From: Humidesulfovibrio sp.
GTDB taxonomy: Bacteria > Desulfobacterota > Desulfovibrionia > Desulfovibrionales > Desulfovibrionaceae
NCBI RefSeq assembly: GCF_031082295.1
Contig: NZ_JAVHLD010000002.1
Span: 40,976-104,975 of the forward strand
DNA: 64,000 bases
Direction of reading: 5' to 3'
The translations under genes were made by a program, and so were the position numbers. Numbering within the stretch: position 1 is the stretch's first letter; the number at the start of each line of letters is the position of its first letter. Shown in pieces: positions 3,210-33,469 of the stretch. The notes beneath the pieces were generated by a model. The model saw only the letters and a program-made list of their open reading frames with translations. It did no database searches and was not told the DNA's origin.

Positions 3210-3286
<77 letters not shown>

Positions 3287-3291
3287 TTTTC

Positions 3292-3317
3292 AGGCCGCCC
3301 CACAGGCGGCCTTTTTC
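3292..3317 (+). terminator. Intrinsic terminator after the tRNA
   Basis: AGGCCGCC-ccaca-GGCGGCCT stem followed by a T run. Confidence 0.75.
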
Positions 3318-3413
3318 ATGTCAAACCGGCGTGTTCAAGGCGGTCTCCGTGGCAGCCATTATCTCGGCGCTTCGCGCCCCTTCGCAGAACGACCTAATAT
3401 GACGGGAGGACTC

Positions 3414-3920: not shown

Positions 3921-3938
3921 GGCAGATCACCGCAAATG

Positions 3939-3968
3939 AAAAGGGCCCCGGCACGCCGGAGCCCTTTT
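3939..3968. terminator. Bidirectional intrinsic terminator between the sodC-like gene and the MCP
   Basis: AAAAGGGC.CCGGC-ac-GCCGG.GCCCTTTT hairpin flanked by A and T runs between convergent genes. Confidence 0.8.
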
Positions 3969-3989
3969 GATTTGTGTACTGACAAAGGA

Positions 3990-5753
3990 TCAGCCTCGTG
4001 CGGTCCCCGACGAAGCCTTTCCAAGGTTGATGTCAGCGGCCAGAACACCTGCGATGGCGCCATCGGGGCTGAGGATCGGCGTGGACACGGTGATGCAGTT
4101 TTCACCCGTTGCACTCGACAAGTAGACATCCGAAACGATGGTTCCACGCATTTCCACCGGCTGGCGGAACCAGGCCCGCGTCCCCCAGTTCTTGCCCACG
4201 GCGCTGCCGTCCACGACGATGCCGGAGTCTCCGCGTCCGATGTTGGACACGATCTGCCGCCCGTCGGCATCCGTAATGTACAAAAGTTCAAAGGACGGGT
4301 TGAGCTTGAGCGTCTCGCGCATGGCCTGTTCCTGTTCATCACGGCGCATGGAGCGCACGGAAGGCTGCGTTGCCATATCCTCCAGAATATGCTGAATGCT
4401 GCCGCCGCCGATGAGCTGGAACACGGCGTTCATGGCCTCCAGCTCCACAACACGCTCAAGCAGCAGGTCCACCGCCAGTGATGCATTTTGCGCCCCCTCG
4501 TAGCTCGCTTCCGAAATGCCGCTCACCTGCCGAACGATGCGGCTGATCCGCTCTCCTGTCGCGGCCTGGCTGCGGGTGTCTTGGGCGATTTCGCTGATAT
4601 GCGCTGCAGAACTGCCTGACAACTCAACAATTTCGCGCAGGGCGTCACCGGAGCTCTTGGCCAGCGCAACAGCCTGGTCGACACGCTGCGAGGTCTCCTG
4701 CATGTCGCGCCCGGTGCGCTCCACCCCATCCTGAATGCCCTTGATGTGGTCCGCCACGTCACGGGTCGCATTCATGGTCTTTTCAGCAAGCTTTCGCACC
4801 TCATCGGCCACAACAGCGAAGCCGCGACCGGCATCGCCAGCGCGAGCGGCCTCGATCGCGGCGTTCAAGGCCAGCAGGTTTGTCTGGTCGGCAATATCGC
4901 TGATGACCTCCATGATGCGTTCCACGTCACGGGCCTGGCTGCCCAGGTCGCGCACAACCTCGGCAAGGTCCTCGGCCTTGCGTTCCACCAGGCGGATTGA
5001 CTGGACGGTTTCGTCAACAACCTTGGCCCCGCCAAGAGCACGATCACGCGCCGACTGGGCCTGGATTACAGCGCGGTCAGAGCCGTTCTGCATTTGCGAA
5101 AATGCGCTGTCCAATCCGTCCATTGCCTGCACCGCCTCGGCCACCAGCCGCTGCTGATCCTTGGCGCCATTACCGGCAGACTTTGACAAGGTGCGCAGGT
5201 TGTCGCTTGAACCGTGAATACCCTCAATGGCAACACCAAGAGTCCGTGCGGCAGACAAGAGTCCGTCGCGACGGGACGCCTCGGAACTCTCACGAATGAA
5301 CACTGCTTCTTGCCGCGCCACATTCAGAGCCTTCTCCTGGTCCGCGAGCAACGCGCGCAGTTCAGCTTCGGTCTTTGCCGCCGCTTCCAACCGGTCGAGC
5401 GCTGCGTAAAGAGTTTGCTCAAACATGACAGAACTGTCGCCCGTTGCCGACAGTTGGCCAATGCCTGTGAACAATTTTGAAGAAGACAATTTTGCACGGA
5501 TCGACAACGATAAGGCACTATCATTACGGGCGGTTAAGATTGACACAACGACCAACACCATACCGCTCGCCACGAGCAGCACCCCCATGCCGAGGCTAAA
5601 ATCCAGGGCAATGGTTTGCAAAAACGTTAACTTTGAAACACCGGCAGCAACGTCGTCCTTGCCTGGCGCGGCTGCAACCACAAAGCCGGTGAGCACACAC
5701 AACGCACCGATTACATTAGAAATTATCAACTTTGACCGAACGCCCATATTCAT
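3990..5753 (-). CDS. Methyl-accepting chemotaxis protein with C-terminal Cache/PDC-like domain
   Basis: [37 protein letters not shown] hairpin; two N-terminal TM segments; C-terminal LYITDADG...R.WF...S.VY.S.ATG..CITVS.PI....GVLAADI; GAAGGAG RBS before ATG 5753. Confidence 0.93.
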
Positions 5754-5791
5754 GACTGCTCCTTCAAGCGTAAAACGATTGCCAGCGCTAA

Positions 5792-5807
5792 AGCAAATCA
5801 TGGACCA
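5792..5807 (-). promoter_or_regulatory. Candidate sigma54 (-24/-12) promoter of the MCP
   Basis: Minus strand TGGTCCATGATTTGCT: exact GG-N10-GC spacing and TTGCT, imperfect -24 box, about 40 nt upstream of the ATG. Confidence 0.4.
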
Positions 5808-5830
5808 TCGGTGCAGGGAAGATTATTATG

Positions 5831-5927: not shown

Positions 5928-8900
5928 ATGTCCGAGCAACGGCAAGACCAGCAAAGCTTCTTCCTCAAACGCAAGTGGTTGCGACGCCTGCTGTTTTGCC
6001 TTGCTGCAATTGCCGCACTTCTCGTTGCCGTCGTGCTTGCCATACCGGCCATGGTCAGTTCAGACTGGGCGCGGAACAAGGTGGAGCAGGCGCTCAGCGC
6101 CTCGACCGGCAAGGACGCGACCGTGCGTCAGCTCTCTTTCGGCTGGTCTGAGGGTCTGAACGTCGGTGGCCTGAATGTCGGGCAGGGCGGACTGGACGAT
6201 GAGGCTTTCCTGTGCTCGCTTGAGACCCTGAGTGTGAAGTTCGACTTTCTTAAAGCCCTGCGCAAGGATATGCACCTGACTGTGTCCGTCTCCGGCCTGC
6301 GCCTGCGCCAGATCGTTGAGCCCACACCCCCACACGCTGAACCCCAGCCAACTGAACTTCCCAAGCCCCTGCCGAAGCTGCTCAGGGACAGCCTTTCTGC
6401 GCTGCGCCAAGGCCTCAAGCCAAGCCCCAGGAGTGGTGATGCGCATATCCTGGTAGATGTTTCGGACATCGAGGCACGACTGATATTCGTCGCCGACAAC
6501 AGCACCCTCGACATCCGCGACGTGACCTTTCGCTTGAGTGTCCCCGGGCTCGCAAACGGCCCGGTACGACTCAATGCTGGTTTCAAGACGCTGCTTAATG
6601 GAAAGGAGCTGGCCCCGCTGAAGCTGGAGGCGCTGCTTGAGGGCCTCGTGGATGAAACCGGGCAGCTGAACCCGGCCCAAGCTCGCCTCAAGGCCAATGC
6701 CGAAGCGCCTGGCGTGGCTCTGCTGGCCCTGGGCAGCGTGGGCAAGGGCTTCAAGACCGACCTTCGCGTTGACTTGCGCAAACTTGCGCCCCTGCTGAAG
6801 CCCTTTGTCGGGTCAGCGCTCCCAGATGTCTCCGGTGCGCTGGCCATCGGGCTGACGGCTGCGCAACCAGACACGGACCATCTCAACCTTGGGCTTGTCG
6901 CTTTTGTTGATTCCTTGCGTGCCGCAGGCGGGCCGCTCGGTCCCAAGAGCGCTGGCCCTTTCGCCATGAACCTGCTGCAGGAGGCGAGCGTTGACCTCAA
7001 GACAGGCGCCATACAGCTGCCGGGCAAGCTTCGCCTGCTGAACAAAAGCACTGCAGACTGGCAGGGCGAGGTCACAGGCCTCAACGAAAGCCAACCCAAG
7101 CTGAACCTGAACGTCCACCCCATCCACCTGCAGCTCGACGAGTTGATGAACGCCGCACGCGCCTGGATTCCCCCCGGCATCAGCATTGCCGCCGCAACCC
7201 TGGACATTCAGAGCATGGTGCTCCAGGCCGCGTTGCCCACGAACGCCGGGGGCAAGCTCCAGGCACTAGCGTCCTTGAAAGACCTCAACCTTGAGGCCAA
7301 AAACGTTACCCGCACGTCCGGGCAAGAACGCCTGAGCATCGCACGTTCACAACTTGTCCTTGAGACCGCTCAGGTCGAACTGCCGGGCAAGGCTCCCGGG
7401 CAGCTTTCAGCCAAAGCGATGGTGACCGTTGAAGGCCTGCGCCAGCAGGGCAAGACGCCAGTGAGCGTGAAGCGCATGGCGCTGACGCACCTTGCCGCCA
7501 GGGTCGACGGTCTTGCCCAGGATTCGGCGGGATTGTTCGGCGTGCTTGGAGCTGCTGCCCTGGACATCACGGGAGAGGTCCAGGGCATCGACATCCCCAA
7601 AATGGCGCAGGTGCCCTCGCTGAAGCACACAGTTACCCTCCGCGCGGACCTGCCCGCCACGAAGTCCGCCACAGCCCGCCTTGAGGCACTGACTCTGGAC
7701 GCACCACGTCTGCGCGTGCTCCTGCCCGGCAAGCGCCCGGTCGATACTCCCCTTGCCCTGCATCTCAGCGTACCGGACATCAGCCTTTCCGATTCCTCGC
7801 CCATGGAGGTCGGCATCGCAGATGCCAAGCTGACCCTTGAGCTCGGGCAGGCCCTGCGTTTGCTGACCACTTCAAGCATGCAGGGAAAAGCGGTGCGCAG
7901 CTCCGGCACCATGACCTTGGACGTGCAACGCTTGCTGGCCTTGGCCACGCCACTGCTTCCGAGCAAGGCGCAAGGCTCGGGCGGTGTCGCGCTGGACTGG
8001 AAACTGTCCGCCGTCCTGCCGCAACCCCAGGGGCCGGTGCAGCAGCCGGTAAAACTCTCCAAGACCCTTGCGCGGCTTGATTTCCTGAAAGAGTTGGAAG
8101 CGGTGTTGACCCTTACCGACGTCAACCTGGACTGGCCCAAGGCAGGGACGGCCCAGGCCGGTGGCGGAAAGCCAGGCGACGTTCTGCGCTTGCGCTCGCT
8201 CAGCACCCCAAAGCCCCTGCGTGTGAACACTTCCGGTGGCCTGCGCGAGTCGAGCCTGCGTGGTTCACTGGCTTTTGGGCCGTTGGACGAACTCCCCGGA
8301 GTCGGGGCGTTGGCCAAGCCACTGCGCGGGCTCGTGACCGTCAACGCCGCGCAGCAAGGTCTTCGTTCGCTCCAACTCTCTGAGATTCTGCACACGGACG
8401 GCCTTGAACTTGACCAGAGCCTGAACATCGCCCTGGATCGCCTGGACCAGGTGCTGGACCGTGACAAAGACAGATTCGCCGCCATCCTGGAGCACGTGGA
8501 CGGCACCATCAGCTTCGCCGCCAAGACCGGACTGGCGACCCTGTCCGCCCAGGCGGGCAAGGCCCAGGCCGCACAGAAGCTCTCCGGCAAGGGCAACCTC
8601 GAGGCAGGATTCGACGCGAAGCTCTCCAGCGGCCGAAGCCTTGCCCTGTCCGCGCGCCTGCTGAGCCCCGGGCTTGACCTGAACCTTGGGCCGAACCTGG
8701 CCATTAGCGGCCTGACCAGTTCCCTGCGCCTGAACAAGCGCTATGCCCTCCAGCCCGGCCTGCGATGCGCCGGACCAAGCCACGAAGTGCTGCAGCCCCT
8801 TTCCGAGCAGGTCTTCGACCTGTTCCCGTCCTCCACCCCAAGCAGCAACTTTGCCGATGACGACAACGCAGTGGCGCACGCACGCCTAAGCGAGTTCCAG

Positions 8901-9635
8901 GCCGGTGGCGGGAGCCTCGGCTTCAGCCGCATGAAGCTCAAGTCCGGCTCGCTGCCGCTGGCTCTCCACGATGTCTTTCTGCGCCTGGACACCAGCGGCC
9001 CGCTCCCTGCCTTGCGCTCTTTTCGCGCGGGCCTGTTGGGCGGAAACATGCTGGGCAGCCTCCAGGTCAAGGGCGCTCGGGGCGACTACGCCCTGGCGGC
9101 CGACCTGAGCTTCACGGGCATCGATCCGTCACGGTTCTTCCCCGGCAAGGCCGCCAAGGACCTTGGCGACAAGGCCGAGACGGCAGGCCGCGTGAGCGTG
9201 ACCCTGCCCCTGACGCCCGACGCGGAAGCCCTGCTGCAACGCATCGGCCTGCGCGCGGACATCACCAAGATCGGCCCGCGCACCCTGGAGCGCATGCTCT
9301 ATGCGCTCGATCCCGACGAGCAGAACGAGACCATCGTGCAACAGCGCCGCCTCATGGACATCGGCTATCCGCGCTTCGTGAACCTGGGATTGGCGTACGG
9401 CAACCTGAGCCTGTCCGGCGCGGTGGAGGTCAAGGGTTTCCAGTTGGACCTGCCGCGCATCGACCGTTTGCCCGTCGGGAACCTCCCCATTGGCACACAA
9501 CTCAAAAAGGCACTGGCGCCCATGCCCAAGCTCATCAAGACCCTGGACGCAGTCTCGTCCAACAGCCTCTGCCGTGACCCAGCAGGGTCGCTCAAGGTTT
9601 CCGGCAACAACGATCAAGAAGGAGTCGCACCATGA
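5928..9635 (+). CDS. AsmA-superfamily (YdbH-type by context) inner-membrane-anchored periplasmic bridge protein, 1235 aa
   Basis: Single N-terminal TM, then AsmA-type pattern (KVEQALSASTGKDATVRQLSFGW...LSVKFDFLKAL) and long alternating-hydrophobic beta-strand sequence; followed by a DUF1318 gene as in ydbH-ynbE-ydbL. Confidence 0.7.
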   Translation: MSEQRQDQQSFFLKRKWLRRLLFCLAAIAALLVAVVLAIPAMVSSDWARNKVEQALSASTGKDATVRQLSFGWSEGLNVGGLNVGQGGLDDEAFLCSLETLSVKFDFLKALRKDMHLTVSVSGLRLRQIVEPTPPHAEPQPTELPKPLPKLLRDSLSALRQGLKPSPRSGDAHILVDVSDIEARLIFVADNSTLDIRDVTFRLSVPGLANGPVRLNAGFKTLLNGKELAPLKLEALLEGLVDETGQLNPAQARLKANAEAPGVALLALGSVGKGFKTDLRVDLRKLAPLLKPFVGSALPDVSGALAIGLTAAQPDTDHLNLGLVAFVDSLRAAGGPLGPKSAGPFAMNLLQEASVDLKTGAIQLPGKLRLLNKSTADWQGEVTGLNESQPKLNLNVHPIHLQLDELMNAARAWIPPGISIAAATLDIQSMVLQAALPTNAGGKLQALASLKDLNLEAKNVTRTSGQERLSIARSQLVLETAQVELPGKAPGQLSAKAMVTVEGLRQQGKTPVSVKRMALTHLAARVDGLAQDSAGLFGVLGAAALDITGEVQGIDIPKMAQVPSLKHTVTLRADLPATKSATARLEALTLDAPRLRVLLPGKRPVDTPLALHLSVPDISLSDSSPMEVGIADAKLTLELGQALRLLTTSSMQGKAVRSSGTMTLDVQRLLALATPLLPSKAQGSGGVALDWKLSAVLPQPQGPVQQPVKLSKTLARLDFLKELEAVLTLTDVNLDWPKAGTAQAGGGKPGDVLRLRSLSTPKPLRVNTSGGLRESSLRGSLAFGPLDELPGVGALAKPLRGLVTVNAAQQGLRSLQLSEILHTDGLELDQSLNIALDRLDQVLDRDKDRFAAILEHVDGTISFAAKTGLATLSAQAGKAQAAQKLSGKGNLEAGFDAKLSSGRSLALSARLLSPGLDLNLGPNLAISGLTSSLRLNKRYALQPGLRCAGPSHEVLQPLSEQVFDLFPSSTPSSNFADDDNAVAHARLSEFQAGGGSLGFSRMKLKSGSLPLALHDVFLRLDTSGPLPALRSFRAGLLGGNMLGSLQVKGARGDYALAADLSFTGIDPSRFFPGKAAKDLGDKAETAGRVSVTLPLTPDAEALLQRIGLRADITKIGPRTLERMLYALDPDEQNETIVQQRRLMDIGYPRFVNLGLAYGNLSLSGAVEVKGFQLDLPRIDRLPVGNLPIGTQLKKALAPMPKLIKTLDAVSSNSLCRDPAGSLKVSGNNDQEGVAP

Positions 9636-10225
9636 AACGATTGATCCTGACGACCTCCCTCGTGGCACTGGCCACCCTGTCCGGCTGCACCCTTGCCGAG
9701 GTCAAGGTCAACGTCGCCAGCGAACGAACCTCCCTTGAGAACCAGATCCTCGGCTCGTACAATTCCCTGTCCGAGGAGACGCTGCTCGTGGCCTCGGTGC
9801 GCGGAGTGGATCCACTCGGCCGCATCCAGACCCCGCCACGCAAGAGCCGGGAACAGCAGGACGCCATCACCGCCATGCAGGTCACAAGCTTCCATGCGGA
9901 CGACGTGGACGCCTTCAAGCGCCTGGGCTGGGTGGGCGAGGACAACAAGGGCCTGCTCACCGGCTTCCCGCTCACCAGGGACAACGCCCCGGACGACCTC
10001 AAGGATTTCGCCGCGCGCTACCAGCAGAATGAATTCAATGCGGTTCTGGCCGAGGTCAACCGCGCTCGCGACACCATCATGCGTCGGGCCATCGAGACCA
10101 ACGCCTCCCTCACCCAGGCCGACTTGCCCAAGGTGCGGGGCGTGTTCGCGAAGCTCAACGAAGACACGGCAAAACCCGGGGAGAAGGTGCAGACCCCTGA
10201 CGGCGCCTGGACGGTGAAGAAATGA
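9632..10225 (+). CDS. DUF1318/YdbL-family lipoprotein
   Basis: Lipobox LSGC; GWVGEDNKGLL motif, EVNRARDTIMR helix, PGEKVQTPDGAW end; ATGA overlaps on both sides. Confidence 0.75.
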   Translation: MKRLILTTSLVALATLSGCTLAEVKVNVASERTSLENQILGSYNSLSEETLLVASVRGVDPLGRIQTPPRKSREQQDAITAMQVTSFHADDVDAFKRLGWVGEDNKGLLTGFPLTRDNAPDDLKDFAARYQQNEFNAVLAEVNRARDTIMRRAIETNASLTQADLPKVRGVFAKLNEDTAKPGEKVQTPDGAWTVKK

Positions 10226-13200
10226 ACGCGCGACCCTTCCGACAACTTTACCGGCAGATTTTAGCGGGATCCTGCCTGGCGCTGGCCCTGCTGCCTTGGC
10301 CAGCCACGGCTGCCACCCCGAAGGCGACTCCGGCGGCTGTGCCCCAAACCCAGCTTGACCAGTCGGCCAAGGCACTGTCCGAAGAGGCATTGCGCGCCAC
10401 GGGGAAACGCCTTGCGCCGCGTCGCGTCGAGGTCAATCGCCCCGTGCAGGTCACGTTCGAGACCGGAGCCGTGCAGCATCTGGACATCACGCCTGATGGA
10501 AAGTGGCTGGCCTACACTCGCCAGAGCAACGGCTACAGCGAGCTTTGGGTGCGCGGCTTGGGTGACGGCCTCACCGGCCTGCCCAGACGACTGGCCCCGG
10601 CACTGGCCGACCGCCTTTCCCCTGCGCTTTCGCCCGACGGCCGACGTATCGCCTTCGTCGGCATGGAGGACGATGTCAAAGGCGACATCTACCTCCTTGA
10701 CCTGGCCAATCCCCAGGCTCAAGCACAAAAGCTGACGGGCCGCGCCACCGAGGACCGCTCGCCCTGCTTCAGACCGGACGGCAAGAGCCTGTACTTCCAA
10801 CAGCGCGACGAGGGCGAGCCAAAGCGTCGCATCGTTGCCCTGGAACTCGCCAACCTTTCGTCCGCCCCGCGCGCCCTCGACACTGACGGCGACGCCGCCC
10901 AGCCCACCCTTTCGCCTGATGGACGCCGGCTTGCCTTCGTCTCGGCGCGCACGGGCGTCAGCGCCGTGTACGTCATGAACCTGGCCTCCGGCGCAGCAGC
11001 CGGACTTCCGCAAAAGCTCACCACGGACGTCCTGCCCCAGGCCTATCCGCGCTTCACGCCCGATGGCATGACCGTGCTGTTCACCACCGCCCCGGTCTTT
11101 GGCGTGACTTCGGACCAGGGCGGCATCCAGACCGTCATCGCACGCGCACCAGTGCCAGCAGATGCCGGTCAAAGCAGCAAGCCTGAAGACCTGACCTCGG
11201 CCCAGGGGGCTGACCTTTCCCCGGTCATGGCCGCGGGCAGGCTGTTCTTCCTGGCCTCGCGCGCCCTTGGAAACACCATCCCGTCCAATGTGTTCAGCCT
11301 CCCGCCAGAGGGCGAGATACCAGACAAGTCCTCCGCGGAGCTGATGACACTCGCCGAAACGCTGGCCAGCCAGTTGCCCGTTGATCGGCACCTGACCATC
11401 CTGGCCTTGGGCAAGGCCGCGCGGACTTCAGGCTACCGCGGCGACATCGCCGCCAAGGCTCTCCTCGGAATGGGGCGGCAGTATGAAAGCCTCGGGCTTG
11501 AGACCCCTGCTCGGCAGGCTTTCGATGCCGCTTCGGCGCTTGATGTGCAGCCCGAGTCGGGCTTTGCCCACATCCGCAGCCTGCTCCTCGGCGTGGCCGA
11601 GGATACCCGCCAGGCTCTGAACGACAAGGGCAGGCGCGCGGCGTTGCAGGCGGGGCTGAAGGCCCTTTCGGGCATTGCCGCCAAGCCGGCCGATACCCCC
11701 GCGCAATCGCGCGTGCAGGCCCAGGCCCGCCTGGAACAGGCCCGGCTGCTGCAAAGCGCCGGGGACTCCAAGTCCATGGCCGAGGCCATCCGCCTCCTCG
11801 ATGCGCAACTCGCCGTGCGGGGCATCGCGCCGGAACAGGCTGCCGAGGCGCTCTTCCTCAAGGCCGAGACCTTTGGGCGCATCGGCCAGGTGCAGGCAGT
11901 GCTCCCCATCCATGCCCAGGTCATCCGCGACTACCCGGACAATGGCCCCTGGGCCGACATGGCCGTCTCGCGCGTGCTGGACCGCACCGTGGAGGCCGCC
12001 GGACCGAAACCTGAAGCCCAGGCCCAGGCCCTGCTTCTCTTGTCGGGCCAGCATCGCCTGGACCTGCCCAAGCTCTCACTCGGCGCTTTGAACCGGTTGG
12101 GGGATGTGTATTACGCCTCGGACGAATGGTCCAAGGCCAAGGACGCATACCGCCAGGCCCTGGACAATGCCAACGCATGGCAGAAGCAGTCTCCGCAGAA
12201 CGCCTCGCAGGTGGCCACGCAGGTTGCCGCCGCCCGGCTCGCCCTGGCGGAGATACTCTACCGCGAGGAACGCTTCCATCAGGCGCTTGATCTCTACGAG
12301 AGCGAAATGGCCTCGCGCCCCTTCGAGGACCGCCTGTACCGCCTGGCCAAGACAGCGCACCTGCGCAAGTCGACAGCGGCGGGCGACTATCTGCTGCGCA
12401 TCGGCGAGGTGCCCTCGGCCCGGGCGATCTTCGCCGGGCTCCTGCGTGACGACCCGGACTTCGTGCCCGCCCACAGGGGCATGATCCGCGCGGCGGCGGC
12501 GCTCAAGACCATCCCCGCCACCCTGGCGGAATACAGGCAGAAGCTGTCCGCCAAGCCGGACGACGCCACCCTGCTCTACGCCACGGGCCTCACCCTGACC
12601 TATGAGAACGGCAAGGCGCCGCTCCTTGAGGCGCGCGACCTCATCAGCCGGGCCATCCAGAAGAATGGCCAGGTGGAGTACTTCCACCAGACCCTGGGCT
12701 ACATCGACGAGGTGCTGGAGACGGTTCATGGTGAACGCGGGCGGCTGGAAGCGGCGCTGGAGTCCTATCAGCGCGCGCGTTTCCTCAACAGCCGCGAGCA
12801 GAACCCGGAAAACGCCGCCAACCTCGACATGAACATCGGCAACATCCACTTCCTGCTGGGCCAGTATGCCCAGGCCTTTGAGGAGTATGGCAAGCGCCAG
12901 GACTCCAAGGTGCCTTTCGACAACCCGGAAACCGAGATCCTGTTCTATCAGCGATTCGGCACTTCCGCCTTCCAGGCCCGCGAGCGCGACAAGCCAAGCC
13001 TCGCGTTTGCCAAGTCCCTGGAGCTTGTCGAGCAGCGCATCCAGCCAAAGTACGCCTCCGAGGTCTTTGGCCGTATCAACAAGTTCGTGTTCGACCGCGT
13101 GCTCACACTTGCCCTGGGCCACGCAGACTTGGCCGAGAAGGCCAAGACTCTGGCCACGCGCCAGTCCGAGCTGAACAACCGGCTCTTCGAGGCCAGCATC

Positions 13201-16200
13201 AAGCCCGCCGGACCGCCGCCTGACCCGGCCTTTGGCGTGTACGTCAAGGCAGTGCAGGAGCTCTTGTCCGAGCAGGAGCGGATCATCGGCGAGTTGCCGC
13301 CGCTGATGCAAAAGGACCGCGAGGCGTCCATGCAGACGCTCTTCGTCATGGCGGGAAAGGTGCGCGAGGCCCTGGGCTTTCCGCCCCGGTTCGTGCAACT
13401 GCGCGCGGAATTGTACGACCGCCTGGGGCTTGCGCATCAAGAGGCCGGTCGCTGGCACGAGGCCAGAGAGGCCTTTGAAAAGGCGCTCGTCATGAACACG
13501 TCCCTGGGCCTCAACCAGAACCTCACGGCCAACCAGCGATCCGTTGCCTACTGCGCGTACATGGAGGCGGGACTGACCACGGGCCTTGATCGCGACAAGC
13601 TGCTTGCTACCGCCGAAGCCGGCTTCCGCCGCATCCCGGAGTTGGTGAGCAAGTATGGCGTGGCCGACAAGAAGGGCGGCAGGGCCGGCAAGGGACTGAT
13701 CAACATCGACCTGGACGTGAGCCTGGACAAGTCCACGGCTTCCCAGGCCGCATACGGGTTCAGCGCCGAGCAGGAGCTGCGCCTGGCTGAGACGTTCCTG
13801 GCGCGCATCGCCACCGAGCGCGGCCGCCCGCGTGAAGCCCTCGGGCTGGTCGAACGCCAATCCACCGCCTTCGAGAAGGGCTCCGTCGCGCCACAGGACA
13901 CCTTTGGCGCGGCCCTGCTGCTGCACCGCGCCGGCATGCTGGAAGCCTCTCTCGGCAGCGAGCCGCAGGCCTTTGAGCGTTTCCGGCGCTCCGCAGAGCT
14001 GTCGCTGGAGATGAAGAATCCTGTCAGCGCCTCGCTGAACGTCATCGACATGGCCGCAACCCTGTTGCGGATGCCCTTTGATTCCAAGGAATTTGCGCTA
14101 CGCCTGAACGAACTGCGCCGTGTGGAGGCCCTCGTCGCCGAGGGCTTGCGGCATAAGCTGCCCGGTGGCGATTCCCTGTCCGCACCGGCCTTCCAGAACA
14201 TCATGGCCGCGCAAAACATGGCCCTGGCGGAGCGCCTGCCCGTCACCGACGCACTCAGCGCGGCACGGCGCATGGAACTGCTGGCACGCTCCGGCCAGCG
14301 GCTTGCCGAGGGCCTGTCCTGGTTCAAGAACAGCCTACCCGCTGGCAACCGCCGCGCACTTGCTCTCAACGCCGCCTTGCACCTGAACCAGGCCGAGCTT
14401 GCCTTGCGCCTGGGTGAAGACGACGTTCGCGCCGAGCAGCTGAACGCAGCCCTGGTCCTGGCCGATGAAGGCCTGCTGCCGGGCTTGCGTTGGCGCGCAT
14501 TGGCAGGCCTCGGGCGCCTCAAGGAAGCCCTTGGCGTCGTGCAGGCCCTGCCGCTGGACGAGGCCTCCTGCGGCGCTGGCGAGATCACCGGAGCTTTTGC
14601 GCCCCTGGTGGCAGCGCTGGTGGACGCCGGTAAGGCCGAAGACGCATACAACCTGACCGAGCGCCTGTCTGAACTGGAACGCGTGGGCCGCATGGGTCGG
14701 CTCGGCGTGGCGCAGCCAACCCAGGCAGAATCCCAGCTCTTGCGGCGCACCGCGCTGAGACTGCTGGCCATCCGCGACCTCAAAGCCCGTATTACAGCCA
14801 CCAAGGGCGATGACCGCGTCGACCTCTCGCGCCGGTTGAGCCAGGAGGAAGAGATCCTCCAGCGCGACCTTGGCCTGGACCGCGAGTCCCTTCCCGGCGT
14901 GGCCCGTCTGGGCAACAGCGTCGCCGAGCAGGACTGGCTGACCATCCTGCACGGCTTGTCGCTTGAGGCTTCGGCCGCTGCCGACTCCGCCGCGAGCGGC
15001 TCCGCCGAGCAGCGATCCCGTCACGCCCAGTTGATGACGCGTCTTGGCGCGCTCAAGGCCGAGGCCGGGAAATCCATCGGCAGGCTGGACGCGCCTGGAG
15101 CCTTGGGCCTGTATCTAGCCGCGCCGAGCGAGGCCATCGACCTCATGGAGAACCTGCCGAAGAACACCAGCACGCTACGCGTCGTTGCCCTGCCTTCGCC
15201 TCGCCGGGATGCGATGCGCTGGGTGGGCCTGCGCCTGGACGCCGATTCCGTTCGTTCCGTGGCCCTTGGCAGCGGCCCTCGCCCGACGCTTCCAGCCGTT
15301 GCTCCAGGGGAACAGCGCCTGCTGGCCTTCGAGGATCCGGGATTCATCGCATCGGATGACTTGCGCACGGCCCAAGCCGGAGCCTTGAGCGGCACGCATC
15401 TGGTTCGCTCGTTCAAAGCGCGCAAGCCCTTCCGCAAGAACCTGGTCTTCATCACCGGCTCGGCCCAGGCCGCATCAATCGGCTTCAAGGGCTTTGACAC
15501 AAAGTCCGTGGCATCTTCCGCCGCCGGCTTGCGGCAATCTCTGGCCCAGGCCCACACCGTGGTTGCGGAGACCCCAGCCCGCCTGTCGCAGTCTGCGCCC
15601 AGCCGTCAGGATGAGCTGCCGGTGCGATTCCTGGCGTTGACCCCGGCCAAGGGAGAGCCGCTGCCGCTGACCGGCCTGGCCACGGCCATGCAGGATGTCT
15701 CCCTTGCCGTGCTGACCCAGGTCCCTGCGGAGAGCCTGCCGCTTGTCGTGCATCTCCTGTCCCTCTACGGCGTGCCCTCGGTGCTGGCCGCACAGGAAGC
15801 GGACGCCAGCGGCAAGGGGTTCACCACCTCCTTCCTGACAGCCTACGCCGAGGATTCGGCGGCCAACGCCCGCGCCAAGGCGCATGCCTCGGGCAAGGAC
15901 ACCGCTTCCTGGCTGCTCCTGGGCGATCCGGGGCTAAACGTCGCTCAGGCCGGCGCCTTCGCCGCCACCCAGTTTGCCCGCTACGTGCGCTCCGGCATGG
16001 AAGACTTCAAGTCGGGACGCCATGCCCAGGCGTTGTCCCTGTTCGAAAACGCCCTGCGCGTAGCCCGGTCGTCGACCCAATTCAGCAAGCACTTGCCTGA
16101 CCTCTTGTCATACTGCCGCGAGAGCGCCTACGCCTCCGACCAGTTCGACAAGTCCCTGGCCTATGCCAAGGAGCTTGCGGCCCTGGTGGCCAAGTCCAGC

Positions 16201-18813
16201 CCGGACACCCCGGCCCACGCCGAGGCCTTGCTGCGGCTCGGCCTGGTCTACGCCAGGCTGGAGCAGTATTCCCAGGCCATCACGGCCGTGCAGCAATCGA
16301 CGGACATGCTCGCCAATCTCGAGTTGGCGCCAAAGGAGATCGAGGCCTTGGCGAGCCTTGGCGCGGTGCTTGAAAACGCCATCCAGTACGACAACGCGCT
16401 CAAGCGCTTCGAGGGTGCGGCCAAGCTGTCCAAAAAGACCGGCTCCAAGGAACTTGTTGCCAAACAGTACCTGAGCATCGGCCGCATTCACGACCTGCGG
16501 CTCTCGCAATACGCCCAGGCCCGCGAGGCCTACGGCGAGGCCCTCTCCATCTACACCAGTCTCGGCCGCAAGGCGGACATGGCCCAGGCCATGCTCGACA
16601 TAGGCCGCTGCGCGAGACTCATCGGCAACTTCACAGAGGCTGAGACCCGCTACGCCGAGGCCCTCAAGCTCATCGCCGCCGACAAAGCGCAGGAACGCCT
16701 GCGCGCGCGCATCCTCATCGAGCAGGCCAACAACGCCTGGCAGCAGGCGCGGTTCCAGCAGGCCTTCGACCTTCAGCGGCAGGTGCTCAAGTCCGCCGAG
16801 AAGAACGGCTGGGTACTTGAGCAGGTCATCGCCCGCAACACCGCCGGACTCCTGTGGTGGAGCCTGGGCGACCACAACCGCGCCGTGCGAGAGCTTGACG
16901 CGGCCCTGCCCCTGGCCCAGTCCCTGCGCATCCGCAAGGACGAGGTCGCCACCACCCTGAACAACCGTGGCTTGGTCGAACGCGACATGGGCCGCTACCC
17001 GCTGGCGCTCAAGACCCTGGGCGAGGCACTCGCCATTGACCGCGAGATACGCTCGCGCTGGGCCATCGCCTACGACCTGCGCAACATCGCCCAAACTTAC
17101 GTGCGCATGGGCGACCCGAGGAAAGCGCTGCCGCTGCTGGACGAGGCGCTCGCCATCGTCTCGGCCACAGGAAACCGCATCAACCAGACCAAGATCCTGC
17201 TGGCCCAGGGCGAGGCGCTGCTTGCCCTTGGCAACGACGACAAGGCCAAGGCCGCCTTTACGCAGGCCGATGGATTGTCCCGCGAAATGGGGCTGCGAGA
17301 CAGCCAGTGGCGCGCGCTGCACGGGCTCGCACGGCTGGACATTGCCGCGGGCAAGCGCCAGGAGGCCAAGGACCTGCTGCAAAAGGCCGTCGATGTCATC
17401 GAGGGCATGCGCGCCGAGCTCAAGGTGGACCAGCTGAAGGACGGCTTCATCGCCGACAAGGCCGTGGTCTACGAGGACCTGGTGACGCTGCTGGCCGATA
17501 TGGGCGAGGTGGCCGAGAGCTTCCGCACGGCAGAACGCTCCCGCGCCCGCAACCTCATCGACCTCCTGGGCAACAAGCGCAGAAGCCCACAACACAAGGA
17601 AGACCAGGCGCTCTACGAGCGCATTAACGCCGTGCGCTCGGCCCTGCGAGAGCAGGAATCGCTGCTGGCCCAAGCACAGGGCAAGAACGAGCGGGAGGTT
17701 TACGCCAAGGGCGTGAAGCGCCTGCAGGACGACTACCGCGACATCCTGCTGGAACTCCAGGCCAACCGGCCGGACATCGCCAGCCTTGTCAGCGTCAATC
17801 CGCTCACCCTGGCCGACGTGCAGAGGATGCTCGAACCCGGCGTGGCGCTTTTGACCTACTACGTCACCGCCAACGAAATCCTCTGCTGGACCGTGGACCG
17901 CGACCGCGTGGAACTGACGCGCACGCGCCTGGGCCGCGACACCCTTGGCCAGATGATCCTGACCTATCGACGCATGCTGCAGAATCTGGAGCCTGTGGAG
18001 GCACACTCGAAGGAACTCCATGCGCTGCTGCTCGCCCCTGTGTTGCCGAAGCTCAACGGCGTGAAGGTTCTCGGCATCATCCCCCACGACAGCCTGCACA
18101 CCCTGGCCTTCGCCACGCTCTCTGACGGCGATTCGAACCTGCTGGACCGCTACCCATTGTTCCAGCTGCCCAGCGCCAGCGTGTTCAAGTTCACGCTGGA
18201 ACGGCGCAAGGCCGAGCGCAACACCAAGGTGCTCGCCGTCGGCAACCCGGACCTGCACGACCAGTCGCTAGAGTTGCCGTTCGCCGAGCGCGAGGTGGGC
18301 TCGCTGGCCTGGAACTACCCGAACATGACAGCATTGACGCGCGAGAAGGCCACCAAGAGCTGGATATCCGAGCACATCAGCGACTTCGGCATCATCCACC
18401 TGGCCACCCACGGCGAGTTCGACCCCGTGAACCCGCTGTTCTCGGCACTCAAGCTGGTGAGCGACAAGAAGGACAAGGACGGCGACCTGGACGCCGCTGA
18501 AATCTTCGACCTGAAGATCTCGGCGGACCTGATCGTGCTCTCGGCCTGCCAGACGGGTCTCGGCAAGGTCACCAGCGGCGACGAGGTTCAAGGCCTGAAC
18601 CAGGCCTTCCTGTATGCCGGTACCCACGCGCTGGTATCGAGCCTGTGGCGGGTGAGCGACATCTCCACTGCCATGCTGATGAAGCAGTTCTATCGCGAGT
18701 ACCAGTCACGCCCGAAGGCCGAAAGCCTGCGTCGGGCCATGCTGCACGTGAAGAACCGTTTCCCGCACCCGGGCTATTGGGGCGCGTTCACCTTGAGCGG
18801 CGACTACAAGTAA
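10222..18813 (+). CDS. Giant exported TolB/PD40-propeller, TPR and CHAT (caspase-like) protease, 2863 aa
   Basis: Sec signal (..LALLPWPATA|A); repeated P..SPDG+.+AF blades (about aa 75-360); long TPR arrays; degenerate CHAT at about aa 1640-1904; C-terminal CHAT with IIHLATHG (H2730), VLSACQTG (C2776) and HP.YWGAFTLSGD. Confidence 0.92.
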   Translation: MNARPFRQLYRQILAGSCLALALLPWPATAATPKATPAAVPQTQLDQSAKALSEEALRATGKRLAPRRVEVNRPVQVTFETGAVQHLDITPDGKWLAYTRQSNGYSELWVRGLGDGLTGLPRRLAPALADRLSPALSPDGRRIAFVGMEDDVKGDIYLLDLANPQAQAQKLTGRATEDRSPCFRPDGKSLYFQQRDEGEPKRRIVALELANLSSAPRALDTDGDAAQPTLSPDGRRLAFVSARTGVSAVYVMNLASGAAAGLPQKLTTDVLPQAYPRFTPDGMTVLFTTAPVFGVTSDQGGIQTVIARAPVPADAGQSSKPEDLTSAQGADLSPVMAAGRLFFLASRALGNTIPSNVFSLPPEGEIPDKSSAELMTLAETLASQLPVDRHLTILALGKAARTSGYRGDIAAKALLGMGRQYESLGLETPARQAFDAASALDVQPESGFAHIRSLLLGVAEDTRQALNDKGRRAALQAGLKALSGIAAKPADTPAQSRVQAQARLEQARLLQSAGDSKSMAEAIRLLDAQLAVRGIAPEQAAEALFLKAETFGRIGQVQAVLPIHAQVIRDYPDNGPWADMAVSRVLDRTVEAAGPKPEAQAQALLLLSGQHRLDLPKLSLGALNRLGDVYYASDEWSKAKDAYRQALDNANAWQKQSPQNASQVATQVAAARLALAEILYREERFHQALDLYESEMASRPFEDRLYRLAKTAHLRKSTAAGDYLLRIGEVPSARAIFAGLLRDDPDFVPAHRGMIRAAAALKTIPATLAEYRQKLSAKPDDATLLYATGLTLTYENGKAPLLEARDLISRAIQKNGQVEYFHQTLGYIDEVLETVHGERGRLEAALESYQRARFLNSREQNPENAANLDMNIGNIHFLLGQYAQAFEEYGKRQDSKVPFDNPETEILFYQRFGTSAFQARERDKPSLAFAKSLELVEQRIQPKYASEVFGRINKFVFDRVLTLALGHADLAEKAKTLATRQSELNNRLFEASIKPAGPPPDPAFGVYVKAVQELLSEQERIIGELPPLMQKDREASMQTLFVMAGKVREALGFPPRFVQLRAELYDRLGLAHQEAGRWHEAREAFEKALVMNTSLGLNQNLTANQRSVAYCAYMEAGLTTGLDRDKLLATAEAGFRRIPELVSKYGVADKKGGRAGKGLINIDLDVSLDKSTASQAAYGFSAEQELRLAETFLARIATERGRPREALGLVERQSTAFEKGSVAPQDTFGAALLLHRAGMLEASLGSEPQAFERFRRSAELSLEMKNPVSASLNVIDMAATLLRMPFDSKEFALRLNELRRVEALVAEGLRHKLPGGDSLSAPAFQNIMAAQNMALAERLPVTDALSAARRMELLARSGQRLAEGLSWFKNSLPAGNRRALALNAALHLNQAELALRLGEDDVRAEQLNAALVLADEGLLPGLRWRALAGLGRLKEALGVVQALPLDEASCGAGEITGAFAPLVAALVDAGKAEDAYNLTERLSELERVGRMGRLGVAQPTQAESQLLRRTALRLLAIRDLKARITATKGDDRVDLSRRLSQEEEILQRDLGLDRESLPGVARLGNSVAEQDWLTILHGLSLEASAAADSAASGSAEQRSRHAQLMTRLGALKAEAGKSIGRLDAPGALGLYLAAPSEAIDLMENLPKNTSTLRVVALPSPRRDAMRWVGLRLDADSVRSVALGSGPRPTLPAVAPGEQRLLAFEDPGFIASDDLRTAQAGALSGTHLVRSFKARKPFRKNLVFITGSAQAASIGFKGFDTKSVASSAAGLRQSLAQAHTVVAETPARLSQSAPSRQDELPVRFLALTPAKGEPLPLTGLATAMQDVSLAVLTQVPAESLPLVVHLLSLYGVPSVLAAQEADASGKGFTTSFLTAYAEDSAANARAKAHASGKDTASWLLLGDPGLNVAQAGAFAATQFARYVRSGMEDFKSGRHAQALSLFENALRVARSSTQFSKHLPDLLSYCRESAYASDQFDKSLAYAKELAALVAKSSPDTPAHAEALLRLGLVYARLEQYSQAITAVQQSTDMLANLELAPKEIEALASLGAVLENAIQYDNALKRFEGAAKLSKKTGSKELVAKQYLSIGRIHDLRLSQYAQAREAYGEALSIYTSLGRKADMAQAMLDIGRCARLIGNFTEAETRYAEALKLIAADKAQERLRARILIEQANNAWQQARFQQAFDLQRQVLKSAEKNGWVLEQVIARNTAGLLWWSLGDHNRAVRELDAALPLAQSLRIRKDEVATTLNNRGLVERDMGRYPLALKTLGEALAIDREIRSRWAIAYDLRNIAQTYVRMGDPRKALPLLDEALAIVSATGNRINQTKILLAQGEALLALGNDDKAKAAFTQADGLSREMGLRDSQWRALHGLARLDIAAGKRQEAKDLLQKAVDVIEGMRAELKVDQLKDGFIADKAVVYEDLVTLLADMGEVAESFRTAERSRARNLIDLLGNKRRSPQHKEDQALYERINAVRSALREQESLLAQAQGKNEREVYAKGVKRLQDDYRDILLELQANRPDIASLVSVNPLTLADVQRMLEPGVALLTYYVTANEILCWTVDRDRVELTRTRLGRDTLGQMILTYRRMLQNLEPVEAHSKELHALLLAPVLPKLNGVKVLGIIPHDSLHTLAFATLSDGDSNLLDRYPLFQLPSASVFKFTLERRKAERNTKVLAVGNPDLHDQSLELPFAEREVGSLAWNYPNMTALTREKATKSWISEHISDFGIIHLATHGEFDPVNPLFSALKLVSDKKDKDGDLDAAEIFDLKISADLIVLSACQTGLGKVTSGDEVQGLNQAFLYAGTHALVSSLWRVSDISTAMLMKQFYREYQSRPKAESLRRAMLHVKNRFPHPGYWGAFTLSGDYK

Positions 18814-18832
18814 CTTGAGGAATATAGCTGAC

Positions 18833-20077
18833 ATGCGTGCAAGACTCTGCTCAACATGGCTGATGGCGATCTGTCTGCTTGCTTTGTCTGCCGGGCAGGT
18901 TCTGGCCGCGCAGGCTGGGGGGGCCGTCCTGTGGACCGCCTCGGACAGGACGCCGCTCAGATCGGATCGCTCCGGCGTGGCCGCGACGCTCAAGGACTTG
19001 CCGCGCGGTACTCCCGTGCGACAGTTGCAAAACGAGGGCGCCTGGCTGCTCGTGGAAGAACCGGGCGGCGTCAAGGGCTGGGCCTACCAGGGACATCTGG
19101 AGGCCTCGCGGCCTTTGCCCACCAGTGTCGACCTCTTTGCGCCGCTGCCTGGCAGCATCGTGCTGGCCGAGACAGCGGACACAAGCCGCAGCTCGCGCTC
19201 TGTCCAGCCGGAGCGCAACAAGGACAATGAGGCCTTGTGGTCTGTTCTGGAGCTGCCGCTTTCCCGTCAGAACCTGGAGGACTTCCTGCGCGAAGGGGGC
19301 ATCGGAGAGTACTCGCAGGCGACGCCGCACAGCAACGGCGGCCCACTCAAGCTCCCTGCGCTCAAACCAGCAGCCCCGCCGGGCGGAGACGCCGAGCGCC
19401 TTCTCGGGCTGAACCTTGCCGTCACGGTGACGCGCAAGGTGGCCAAGCCGGCCTTCGGTACGCAGTTGCAACGCTATGTCAATCTGGTGGGTTTGAGCGT
19501 GGCGCGTTTCGCACCCGGCAACGCCCTGAGCTATCGTTTCATCGTACTGGACAGCCCTGCGCCGATGTCCTTGAGCCTGCCTGGAGGCTTTGTCATGATC
19601 AGCACGGGCCTCGTCAAGTCGCTGGACAACGAGGCCCAGTTGGCGCTGGTGCTGGCGCACGAGGCTGCGCACGCCTCTCTCGCCCATGGCTGGGCCAGGG
19701 CCAAGGCGACGCAGTTCTTCCGCTCAGGCCTTGGCATGACCGATGATGGCGTGAAATCGCCGTTGTTCGGGCAGATGCAGGACGAGTTGCTGAAGCAGTT
19801 GTTGCGCCACGGCACGGACCAGAAGCAGGAATATGACGCAGACGCCGCAGCCGTGCAGATGGCCTATCGCGCCGGCTACGACCCCATGCAATTGATCGCC
19901 GCGCTCCATAACGTGGACCGCGCGTCGGACGGCGCCGTGCTGAGTTCTAGCGCCAGATGGAGCGACCTGCACCCGCCTTTACAGATGCGCATGAACAGAA
20001 TCCAGGCGCTTTTGGCGCGGTTGCCCATGCAGGACGGACTGGCGCTGGCAACGCAACGTTTCCAGGCCAACATCTAG
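18833..20077 (+). CDS. Exported SH3b domain plus M48-family zinc metalloprotease
   Basis: Signal peptide; SH3b (LPRGTPVRQLQNEGAWLLVEEPGGVKGW); M48 motifs SLPGGFVMISTGL, LAHEAAH, QEYDAD, HPP; GAGG RBS before ATG 18833. Confidence 0.85.
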   Translation: MRARLCSTWLMAICLLALSAGQVLAAQAGGAVLWTASDRTPLRSDRSGVAATLKDLPRGTPVRQLQNEGAWLLVEEPGGVKGWAYQGHLEASRPLPTSVDLFAPLPGSIVLAETADTSRSSRSVQPERNKDNEALWSVLELPLSRQNLEDFLREGGIGEYSQATPHSNGGPLKLPALKPAAPPGGDAERLLGLNLAVTVTRKVAKPAFGTQLQRYVNLVGLSVARFAPGNALSYRFIVLDSPAPMSLSLPGGFVMISTGLVKSLDNEAQLALVLAHEAAHASLAHGWARAKATQFFRSGLGMTDDGVKSPLFGQMQDELLKQLLRHGTDQKQEYDADAAAVQMAYRAGYDPMQLIAALHNVDRASDGAVLSSSARWSDLHPPLQMRMNRIQALLARLPMQDGLALATQRFQANI

Positions 20078-20086
20078 GCCAAGCAG

Positions 20087-20674
20087 CTAGAACTTCATGT
20101 TCTTGGCGTCCTCGATGGCCTTGAGCGCATCGGGCGGGATGTCCTTTTCAGTGGCCGGGCCGCTGGAAGGATAATCCTTGTTGCCGATGCGAACCGTGCC
20201 GCCCTTGTTGACGACCGTGCCGACGCTGGATTTGATCTTTCCCTTTTCAACGCCCTCGGCGGCCTCGCGCTTCAAGGCCTCCTTCTCGGCCTGGGCCTCG
20301 GCCTTGGCGGCGGCCTTGAGGGCTTCCTTCTCCGCCTTGAGCTGAGCCTTCAGCGCCTGCTTCTCGCGCTCGCGCTCGGCCTTGGCGGCGGCTTTGGCGG
20401 CGGCCTTTTCGGTGTCGGCGGCCGGATCGTGCGGAACCAGGGCCACCTTGCCGTCGCGGATGATCACGTCCATGCCGGGCTTGTACTTTTGCTCCTGCAG
20501 GACACCGTCCAAGTAGATTTTGTCACCCTCGATGACCACGCTGTTCACACTGCCCTTGCCGGTTTTCCAGTCGCCCACCACCACGTTGGTCACGTCGTCC
20601 GCCGCAATGGCGGACACGCCTGAGGCCAACAACAGGGCTAAGGCAACCAGAATGCTTCGAAACTTGCGGTGCAT
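20087..20674 (-). CDS. Hypothetical secreted protein with Ala/Lys/Glu-rich coiled-coil
   Basis: AAGGAGG RBS, Sec signal (..SAIA|A), beta-rich N-terminal part, repeated AEKEALK, host-like codon usage. Confidence 0.75.
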   Translation of the reverse strand: MHRKFRSILVALALLLASGVSAIAADDVTNVVVGDWKTGKGSVNSVVIEGDKIYLDGVLQEQKYKPGMDVIIRDGKVALVPHDPAADTEKAAAKAAAKAEREREKQALKAQLKAEKEALKAAAKAEAQAEKEALKREAAEGVEKGKIKSSVGTVVNKGGTVRIGNKDYPSSGPATEKDIPPDALKAIEDAKNMKF

Positions 20675-33447: not shown

Positions 33448-33469
33448 TGCTTTGGTCCACGTCTGCCGC

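Follow-up and report, generated by a model that had tools for sequence, protein, structure and literature searches.

A conserved gene module joins a predicted AsmA-like bridge protein and a lipidated YdbL-type protein to exported proteases in Thermodesulfobacteriota

The route by which phospholipids reach the outer membrane of Gram-negative bacteria, and the regulation of this flow, are an open question for which AsmA-like bridge proteins are the leading candidates. The sole regulatory clue so far comes from Escherichia coli, where the amount of YdbL is crucial and DegP breaks down the free protein in vitro (PMC13464000). Here we analysed a locus of Humidesulfovibrio sp. (NZ_JAVHLD010000002.1), an uncultured organism known from wastewater and groundwater metagenomes, in which four genes, referred to as g1 to g4, occupy positions 5928-20077 of a 64,000-nt stretch of DNA (the window, in whose coordinates all positions are given unless another locus is named). 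An initial annotation of the window had read these genes as one coupled operon for an AsmA/YdbH bridge, a YdbL lipoprotein, a giant exported CHAT protease and an SH3-M48 protease. The locus thus raises the question whether the four genes form a unit and, if so, what two proteases do beside a bridge protein. As set out below, g1, g2 and g3 were found to be obligately linked, and the module appears to be an AsmA-like/YdbL bridge system with co-evolving dedicated proteases, a composition suggesting that a supply line of the outer membrane is under dedicated proteolytic control. The reading we favour, to which we give slightly less than an even chance, is that the four genes are one operon building a protease-controlled AsmA-like/YdbL intermembrane bridge.

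The layout of the locus was confirmed from the open reading frames (ORFs) and the sequence. All four genes are co-directional, the starts of g2 and g3 overlap the stop codons of the preceding genes in an ATGA (9632-9635 and 10222-10225), and a 19-nt gap separates the stop of g3 at 18813 from the ATG of g4 at 18833, with an alternative TTG start of g4 also open at 18815. Start/stop overlaps recurred in the loci L001-L003, L065, L066 and L072. The genes flanking the module run antisense to it, an MCP gene upstream (3990-5801) and a 195-residue ORF followed by SpoT downstream, and since opposite-strand genes lie on both sides the module is, by its structure, an isolated four-gene operon. All four products carry envelope-targeting signals, as judged by eye and from hydropathy rather than with a topology predictor: a transmembrane segment in g1, a lipobox in g2, and signal-peptide-like N-termini in g3 and g4. 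These signals were kept in the homologues. The reading of the four genes as a single conserved, translationally coupled module of envelope-targeted products was borne out.

Co-occurrence and synteny in other genomes were checked both from g1 and from the CHAT domain of g3, and the linkage held in both directions. The scan from g1, with one genome per species and gene presence scored by locally built hidden Markov models (HMMs), gave 60 loci with g1 relatives, while 80 of 233 relatives were kept in the reciprocal CHAT scan of metagenome contigs; these locus counts include some near-duplicate genomes, such as those of L002 and L007. Starting from g1, g2 was the next gene in 61 of 61 evaluable loci and g3 followed g2 in 58 of 58, always on the same strand, and g4 followed g3 on the same strand in 36 of 45. 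Starting from the CHAT gene in the metagenome loci, g2 was found upstream in 30 of 30, g1 in 26 of 27, and g4 downstream in 56 of 75. The carriers, which are sulfate- and metal-reducing bacteria, belong to two classes of Thermodesulfobacteriota: relatives of g1 were present in Desulfovibrionales (Desulfocurvus, Humidesulfovibrio and Desulfovibrio), at 41-63% identity, and in Geobacteraceae/Desulfuromonadaceae, at 22-28% identity. Altogether, g1, g2 and g3 are the core of the module, and g4, present in about 75-80% of the loci, is a frequent accessory. Since the M48 gene is missing from the other 20-25% or so, the two-protease cascade of the initial annotation is unsupported as an obligatory feature.

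Several loci departed from the standard arrangement while retaining its parts. In the Geobacter clade the SH3 and M48 portions of g4 are separate genes, and in L065 (10570-19217) the propeller that forms the N-terminal part of g3 is encoded by a separate gene of 383 codons. The order in L149 (1809-14376), and probably in L152, is permuted to g2-g3-SH3-M48-g1, with the genes still clustered. In distant lineages with 43-50% GC (L069 and L072), a gene for a long-form DUF1318 protein, as g2 is, is followed by a TPR-CHAT gene of 2300-2800 codons. In two distant loci, L071 and L072, the C-terminal motif of g1 is encoded ahead of the gene for long-form DUF1318, and in L072 the gene with the g1-like C-terminus stands before both the DUF1318 and the CHAT gene. 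The 2309-residue CHAT protein of L072 (10539-17468) has no Pfam propeller annotation, and our local N-terminal profile matched its residues 106-273; its propeller is at best very diverged.

A few individual loci deserve mention in their own right. The sole cultured carrier found was Geobacter sp. OR-1 (L041, NZ_BAZF01000008.1), where g1 is present as two overlapping ORFs (9803-10876 and 10839-13484), reflecting either a frameshift or an error of the draft assembly; splits of g1 or g3 were also seen in L049, L051, L055 and L066. A module of the Geobacter-clade type, with 26% identity to g1, was found in a metagenome-assembled genome labelled Dongiaceae, Alphaproteobacteria (L024), and represents either a mis-binned contig or a horizontal transfer.

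Conceivably, the module could consist of two or more independent units that are adjacent by chance. The same gene order was, however, found in more than 100 independent loci, and a recurrence of this extent places the arrangement far beyond chance. Order and strand are kept across the two classes and the distant 43-50% GC lineages, the start/stop overlaps are kept as well, and even where the order is permuted the genes stay clustered. Chance adjacency is therefore effectively excluded.

The identity of g1 had to be approached indirectly. The protein gave no match to Pfam or NCBIfam, even at E=10, and a profile built from 15 g1 homologues gave 0 hits against all PDB sequences. An AlphaFold2 (AF2) model of residues 36-1235, with a predicted local distance difference test score (pLDDT) of 75.8 and thus of moderate confidence, consisted of a nearly continuous run of long beta-strands. 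The best PDB match of this model in Foldseek was 9cap_A, LPD-3/BLTP1 (E=9e-7, probability 1.0), followed by ApoB100; the TM-scores of these matches were low (0.15-0.17), as is usual for long flexible rods. The syntenic protein of L065 aligned with g1 collinearly over the full length (24% identity, E=4e-85), and this homologue passes the Pfam cutoffs for DUF748 (58.5 vs 50) and AsmA (30.3 vs 29.8). Among 31 diverse members of the g1 family, weak hits were obtained to YhdP for three, AsmA for two and DUF748 for one. The transmembrane anchor of g1, which has a Kyte-Doolittle mean of 3.17 (15-residue window) and is preceded by KRKWLRR, lines up in the L065 homologue with the N-terminal region of AsmA/DUF748. 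Since g1 itself matches no Pfam model of the clan, its membership is one of transitive homology, and by this homology and the modelled fold g1 is predicted to be an AsmA-like bridge protein. As a member of the YdbH family, g1 was rejected: it did not match PF11739 at E=10, whereas YdbH of E. coli scores 3e-291, and comparisons of the g1 family with E. coli YdbH by hhalign and with the local family HMM were negative. The proposed "AsmA/YdbH bridge" was thus sustained for the AsmA-like clan and fold, and not for YdbH, whose partner YnbE also has no homologue in the module.

Two segments of g1 stood out. Within a loop modelled with low confidence (pLDDT below 50 at model residues 910-957), the tripeptide P957-L958-S959 (nt 8796-8804) is invariant in 31 sequences and its flanks are variable, which makes this PLS loop a candidate docking or cleavage site. 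The C-terminal region is the best-conserved part of the protein, with a column conservation of 0.72-0.77 vs approximately 0.55 elsewhere, and its identity between the two classes is 33-35%, compared with 24% for the body of g1.

One source names a g1 homologue TamB, and TamB was first described in protein assembly. Accordingly, g1 and g2 might be a TAM-like assembly or export device that delivers g3 and g4 to the outer membrane or the cell surface for action on external targets, and the fact that the proteases are co-encoded with the device would fit such a role. We consider this very improbable, as neither the operon nor its conserved flanks were found to contain an Omp85/TamA-type barrel or any other secretion component, the CHAT domain forms the end of g3, which bears no recognisable secretion tag, and current evidence assigns AsmA-like proteins to lipid transport (PMC11126948, PMC8593681).

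For g2, the initial assignment as YdbL-like was upheld by three lines of evidence. Residues 89-196 match Pfam DUF1318 (PF07027) with 32.8 bits against a cutoff of 27, and an AF2 model of g2 (pLDDT 83.6) had as its top and sole significant PDB match the crystal structure of E. coli YdbL, 28oj (probability 1.0, target TM-score 0.87, root-mean-square deviation 2.7). A sequence search of the PDB did not find YdbL, whereas this fold search recovered it, and a direct comparison of g2 with E. coli YdbL by hhalign gave E=4e-5. Judged by profile and model, the C-terminal domain of g2 is a YdbL domain. In front of it lies a lipidated N-terminal extension (residues 19-88) that is the most conserved element of the whole module, with 66-69% identity between the classes compared with 47-51% for the DUF1318 domain. 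Cys19 of the lipobox and the adjoining Thr20 are invariant in 28 homologues, and so is, in the alignment of homologues, the loop of residues 54-69, ASVRGVDPxGxIxxPP. The strand-like stretch of the extension includes EVKVNV; in the monomer model, residues 18-29 are disordered and residues 31-54 helical. A profile of the extension retrieved at least 150 clusters, mostly lipoproteins of 180-210 residues, so this long-form YdbL constitutes a family in its own right. Two multi-repeat proteins that also matched the profile (P0182 and P0215) were discarded as repeat artefacts in unrelated proteins.

An obvious question was what takes the place of YnbE. No ynbE gene was found at the locus, where the gene overlaps leave no space for a small ORF, and g2 itself has no match to PF13617. 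We considered whether g2 could be a fusion of YnbE and YdbL and rejected this for want of sequence support: in an hhalign comparison of the g2 N-terminus with YnbE the signal peptide alone aligned, and the extension belongs to the broad family of lipoproteins of about 190 residues. Inspection of the gaps between g2 and g3 in other loci for hidden small genes yielded nothing convincing apart from an unrelated ORF of 128 codons in three Desulfuromonadaceae/Geobacteraceae loci (L036, 14473-14856; L038, 14336-14719; L044, 14447-14830). Its product resembles DUF559, a very-short-patch-repair-like endonuclease. The insert interrupts the usual overlap of g2 and g3 and has the look of a selfish insertion.

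The third protein, g3, is an exported TPR-CHAT protein, as the initial annotation had stated, and signal-peptide-like N-termini were seen in about 60 homologues. Its N-terminal beta-propeller was detected by PD40 (2e-27, in three stretches), and residues 90-297 match TolB structures with E-values of 1.5e-15 to 4e-11. Of the long region that follows, Pfam TPR hits are dense over residues 1920-2500 and sparse over residues 620-1100, and residues 1100-1900, in which no domain was recognised, are probably helical. The CHAT domain (PF12770, 3e-61) is complete, covering positions 4-289 of the 289 of the model. The predicted catalytic dyad is intact, with the cysteine at position 2776 as originally assigned; over 48 homologues H2730 and C2776 show a conservation of at least 95%, and neither varies in the distant ones. 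The region around the dyad aligns with the catalytic region of Csx29 (7y9x_B, 2e-4) and with that of a 991-residue CHAT protein (8rot_B, 1e-3), which is probably DdvA, judging from its length and residue numbering.

With about 2000 residues of helical repeat and a TolB-like propeller, g3 could instead be mainly structural, its periplasm-spanning TPR solenoid and propeller tethering or sheathing the bridge at the peptidoglycan or the outer membrane and its CHAT domain serving for self-processing or binding. The translational coupling, which suggests a stoichiometric assembly, would be in line with this, and the separate propeller gene of L065 and the unannotated propeller of L072 suggest a modular scaffold. 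Nevertheless, a mainly structural g3 seems to us rather improbable, since between the classes the CHAT domain with its dyad is the most conserved part of the protein, at 63% identity compared with 44% for the TPR region and 30-36% for the propeller and middle, and this, as far as sequence comparison can tell, is the pattern of a working enzyme.

The fourth protein, g4, matched Pfam M48 (PF01435; 5e-19, nt 19469-20008) and carries HEAAH and a downstream E-x-x-A-D, which bears out its assignment as an M48 protease. Its closest solved relative in the PDB is 3c37, an M48 family protein (2e-25), and BepA was matched at 3e-8. The SH3_3 match (about nt 18947-19099; 4.6e-4) is below the Pfam threshold (20.7 vs 27).

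From these parts we infer a physical complex, its substrate and trigger, a direction of regulation and a transport of lipids along the following lines. Anchored in the inner membrane, g1 would form a long beta-groove like those of AsmA-like (bridge-like lipid transfer) proteins. The lipid-anchored g2 would be a chaperone of the YdbL type; its docking site would be the conserved g1 C-terminus, by analogy with YdbL and YnbE on YdbH, and since there is no ynbE gene, the lipidated N-terminal strand and helix of g2 may themselves supply the outer-membrane end of the bridge. In the periplasm, the propeller and the scaffold of about 2000 TPR/helical residues of g3 would bind the bridge or an envelope cue. 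Its CHAT His-Cys site would then cut one of the components, the candidates being the g2 loop at residues 54-72, which connects the N-terminal segment to the YdbL domain, and the PLS loop of g1, and this cut would license, remodel or dismantle the bridge. Finally, g4 would be an optional second protease clearing the products or misassembled parts. A more specific version holds that the giant periplasmic caspase-like protease gates the AsmA-like lipid bridge: its TPR/propeller sensor would read the state of the envelope, and cleavage of either the lipidated YdbL-type adaptor or the PLS loop by its CHAT domain would open or close the flow of lipids. This version is speculative, and we regard it as possible without expecting it to be right. 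If true, the module would represent a new class of envelope machine; no giant CHAT protease that is exported would have been assigned a function before, and no bridge-like lipid transfer protein would previously have been seen under site-specific proteolytic control.

Three observations weigh against a protease-controlled bridge. As neither g1 and YdbH nor the g2 N-terminus and YnbE have sequence similarity, the analogy with E. coli has its basis in the YdbL domain and the common fold class. Moreover, L067 and L068 have long-form DUF1318 lipoproteins with no CHAT gene in the neighbourhood, so the extension of g2 is not specific to the protease. Lastly, a simple maturation protease would not need anything near the 2863 residues of g3, and this size speaks for roles in sensing or scaffolding that the bridge model leaves unspecified.

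Such a sensing role would be central if the module were a surveillance or defence switch, in which the giant TPR/propeller region of g3 senses a foreign protein (of a phage, a predator or a toxin) or envelope damage in the periplasm and its CHAT domain cuts the bridge proteins to seal, kill or signal, along the lines of DdvA or Craspase. TPR-CHAT proteins of known biology are ligand-gated, and DdvA is a proposed sensor of a phage cue (PMC11506125). The alignment of the g3 CHAT region with Csx29 and 8rot_B can be counted in favour of a switch, and the size of g3 suits a sensor. In addition, immediately upstream of SodC and the module, one locus (L002, 1-8964) carries a ThsB-type TIR gene together with prophage-like genes (baseplate J, Mu Gp48 and an integrase), and another (L001, 8181-8948) has a HEPN gene upstream; these defence-type neighbours are not conserved across loci.

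We nevertheless judge a defence switch unlikely, and the chromosomal context speaks against it. In the Desulfovibrionales clade the module lies between SodC-MCP upstream and SpoT/SBP downstream, and in the Geobacter clade it follows a different, also fixed gene set. The Cu/Zn superoxide dismutase gene (plus strand; SodC-MCP at 3225-5801 in the window) was present upstream in 15 Desulfovibrionales-clade loci (among them L002, L007, L009-L014, L016-L020 and L043). In most of these the MCP gene (minus strand) stands between SodC and g1, with L002 and L007 as exceptions, and downstream SpoT and SBP_5 are conserved. No extra partner gene common to both clades was found upstream or downstream. The rest of the window is housekeeping, including AccA/D, GlyS, Mfd and a RapA-like gene. 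In PADLOC-DB 2.0, g1, g2 and g4 had no match, and g3 matched only a generic TPR model and, weakly, BovA (0.0017). Among the annotations of the operon genes there was no sigma or anti-sigma factor, nuclease or other effector, and the parts of the module are strongly conserved rather than diversifying. A context that is fixed within each clade, combined with no match to defence models, is the signature of a vertically inherited envelope function and not of a mobile defence island. Of the two halves of the initial inference, processing of the bridge is more likely than sensing of phages or predators.

The coordinates of all features are collected in Table 1. Of promoter-like matches, two were found against 1.1 expected by chance, which is weak, and inside the operon terminators were not detected above chance (9 found vs 13 expected). 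The only candidate RNA run for transcript evidence (X12) was set aside and read as DNA, because it had a flat depth of about 20x in contigs spanning divergent genes. The ORF downstream of g4 (20087-20674, minus strand) is convergent with g4 and ends 9 nt from its stop; its 195-residue product combines a signal peptide with a coiled-coil middle rich in Ala, Lys and Glu. It gave no family match beyond weak TolA-like low-complexity matches and was not among the conserved neighbours of the other loci. The GC content is 63-68% over the module (window positions 6000-20000), vs 58-61% over the 6 kb before it and about 60-63% after it, which may be a mere effect of the Ala/Leu/Arg-rich TPR composition. 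Elsewhere in the window, an ORF of 790 codons (31189-33561, minus strand) encodes an AccA-like carboxyltransferase domain and a second carboxyl-transferase domain and looks like a fused AccA/AccD.

Table 1. Features of the module and their positions in the window
Feature	Position	Strand	Description or basis
g1	5928..9635	+	1235 aa; predicted inner-membrane-anchored AsmA-like (repeating beta-groove) bridge protein
g1 N-terminal transmembrane anchor, residues 19-43, RRLLFCLAAIAALLVAVVLAIPAMV	5982..6056	+	Sequence reading
g1 low-confidence loop, residues 945-992	8760..8903	+	pLDDT <50 in the model
g1 C-terminal region, residues 1100-1210, with LYALDPDEQNE	9225..9557	+	Best-conserved part of g1
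g2	9632..10225	+	197-aa lipoprotein, long-form YdbL (DUF1318)
g2 lipobox L-S-G-C, residues 16-19	9677..9688	+	Cys19 as the lipidated residue, Thr at +2; sequence reading
g2 N-terminal extension, residues 19-88	9686..9895	+	Amphipathic strand-like 20-30, helix 31-54, loop 54-69
g3	10222..18813	+	2863-aa exported TolB-like propeller - TPR - CHAT protein
g3 PD40/TolB-like beta-propeller, about residues 60-400	10399..11421	+	PD40
g3 helical/TPR region, about residues 620-2500	12079..17721	+	Pfam TPR hits
g3 CHAT caspase-like protease domain, residues 2596-2861	18007..18804	+	Pfam CHAT
g3 predicted catalytic His2730	18409-18411	+	Conserved dyad
g3 predicted catalytic Cys2776	18547-18549	+	Conserved dyad
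g4	18833..20077	+	414 aa from ATG; exported SH3 + M48 zinc metalloprotease
g4 HEAAH, residues 276-280	19658-19672	+	Motif read
g4 EYDAD, residues 333-337	19829-19843	+	Motif read; downstream E-x-x-A-D
Sigma-70-like promoter match TGGACC-17-TATTAT	5801..5829	+	About 100 nt 5' of g1, in the 126-nt divergent intergenic region; weak

We found no published description of this gene combination, in agreement with the initial annotation; as related literature, full-text searches turned up only the papers on YdbH, YnbE and YdbL of E. coli and the work on DdvA. What the module adds is a tie, across classes of Thermodesulfobacteriota, between a YdbL-type protein with an AsmA-like bridge and a predicted caspase-fold protease. 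As such it offers a natural system for the proteolytic control of a bridge, addressable by a single point mutation (C2776A). It also provides a concrete set of partners for exported CHAT proteases, of which DdvA is the only characterised periplasmic example that we found, and it defines the long-form lipidated YdbL family with its extremely conserved N-terminal segment.

Among known systems, the closest parallel is YdbH-YnbE-YdbL of E. coli. There, YdbH requires the lipoprotein YnbE to reach the outer membrane, and YdbL binds the helix of YnbE and docks it on the C-terminus of YdbH (PMC11126948; PMC13464000). In both systems the gene for an inner-membrane-anchored beta-groove protein, predicted as such for g1, is followed by an overlapping-start gene for a DUF1318/YdbL-fold protein, and the C-terminus is the best-conserved part of the bridge protein. 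The E. coli model, too, includes a proteolytic step acting on YdbL. The differences are that g1 lies outside the YdbH family and has the size of TamB or YhdP (1235 vs 879 residues), that there is no ynbE, and that g2 is lipidated and has a conserved N-terminal extension of 70 residues. Furthermore, the module co-encodes two dedicated proteases, whereas E. coli relies on the general protease DegP. With the AsmA clan (AsmA, TamB, YhdP and DUF748) and with BLTP1/LPD-3, g1 shares an N-terminal transmembrane anchor followed by a long, repeating predicted beta-groove. It differs from them in being too diverged for any Pfam model, in having a C-terminal module of its own, LYALDPxEQNE, which is tied to long-form DUF1318, and in the lack of a TamA-type partner.

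For g3, the nearest characterised counterpart is DdvA of Myxococcus xanthus, a periplasmic TPR-CHAT anti-sigma factor with a His-Cys dyad. DdvA crosses the membrane once and has a zinc anti-sigma domain in the cytoplasm, a sigma factor partner of the extracytoplasmic function (ECF) type and an incomplete CHAT domain that is short of three helices (PMC11506125). Likewise, g3 is a TPR-CHAT protein with a His-Cys dyad and is predicted to be periplasmic. In contrast to DdvA, it is a soluble exported protein, three times larger, that has both a complete CHAT domain and a propeller like that of TolB, and its gene has no sigma factor gene as a neighbour; its signal peptide directly precedes the propeller, with no zinc anti-sigma domain or transmembrane helix of the DdvA type. 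The TPR-CHAT architecture is also shared with Csx29/Craspase of type III-E CRISPR systems and with separase, with weak similarity around the dyad. These are switch-like caspase-fold proteases that cut a specific partner, and, unlike g3, they are cytoplasmic and RNA-guided or cell-cycle controlled. Against the Csx29 model g3 scored 50.2 bits vs a cutoff of 300, and no cas or CRISPR genes were found in the operon or its flanks. Similarly, residues 90-297 of g3 align with the propeller of TolB, and this propeller is all that the two have in common (86.8 bits vs a cutoff of 343, with no Tol-Pal genes nearby). Finally, g4 resembles BepA and LoiP in being an exported envelope M48 zinc protease with an HExxH motif. 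It scores far below the cutoffs of both models (35 vs 570 for the BepA model and 23 vs 365 for the LoiP model), has SH3 in place of the TPR of BepA, and is split in two or absent in many loci.

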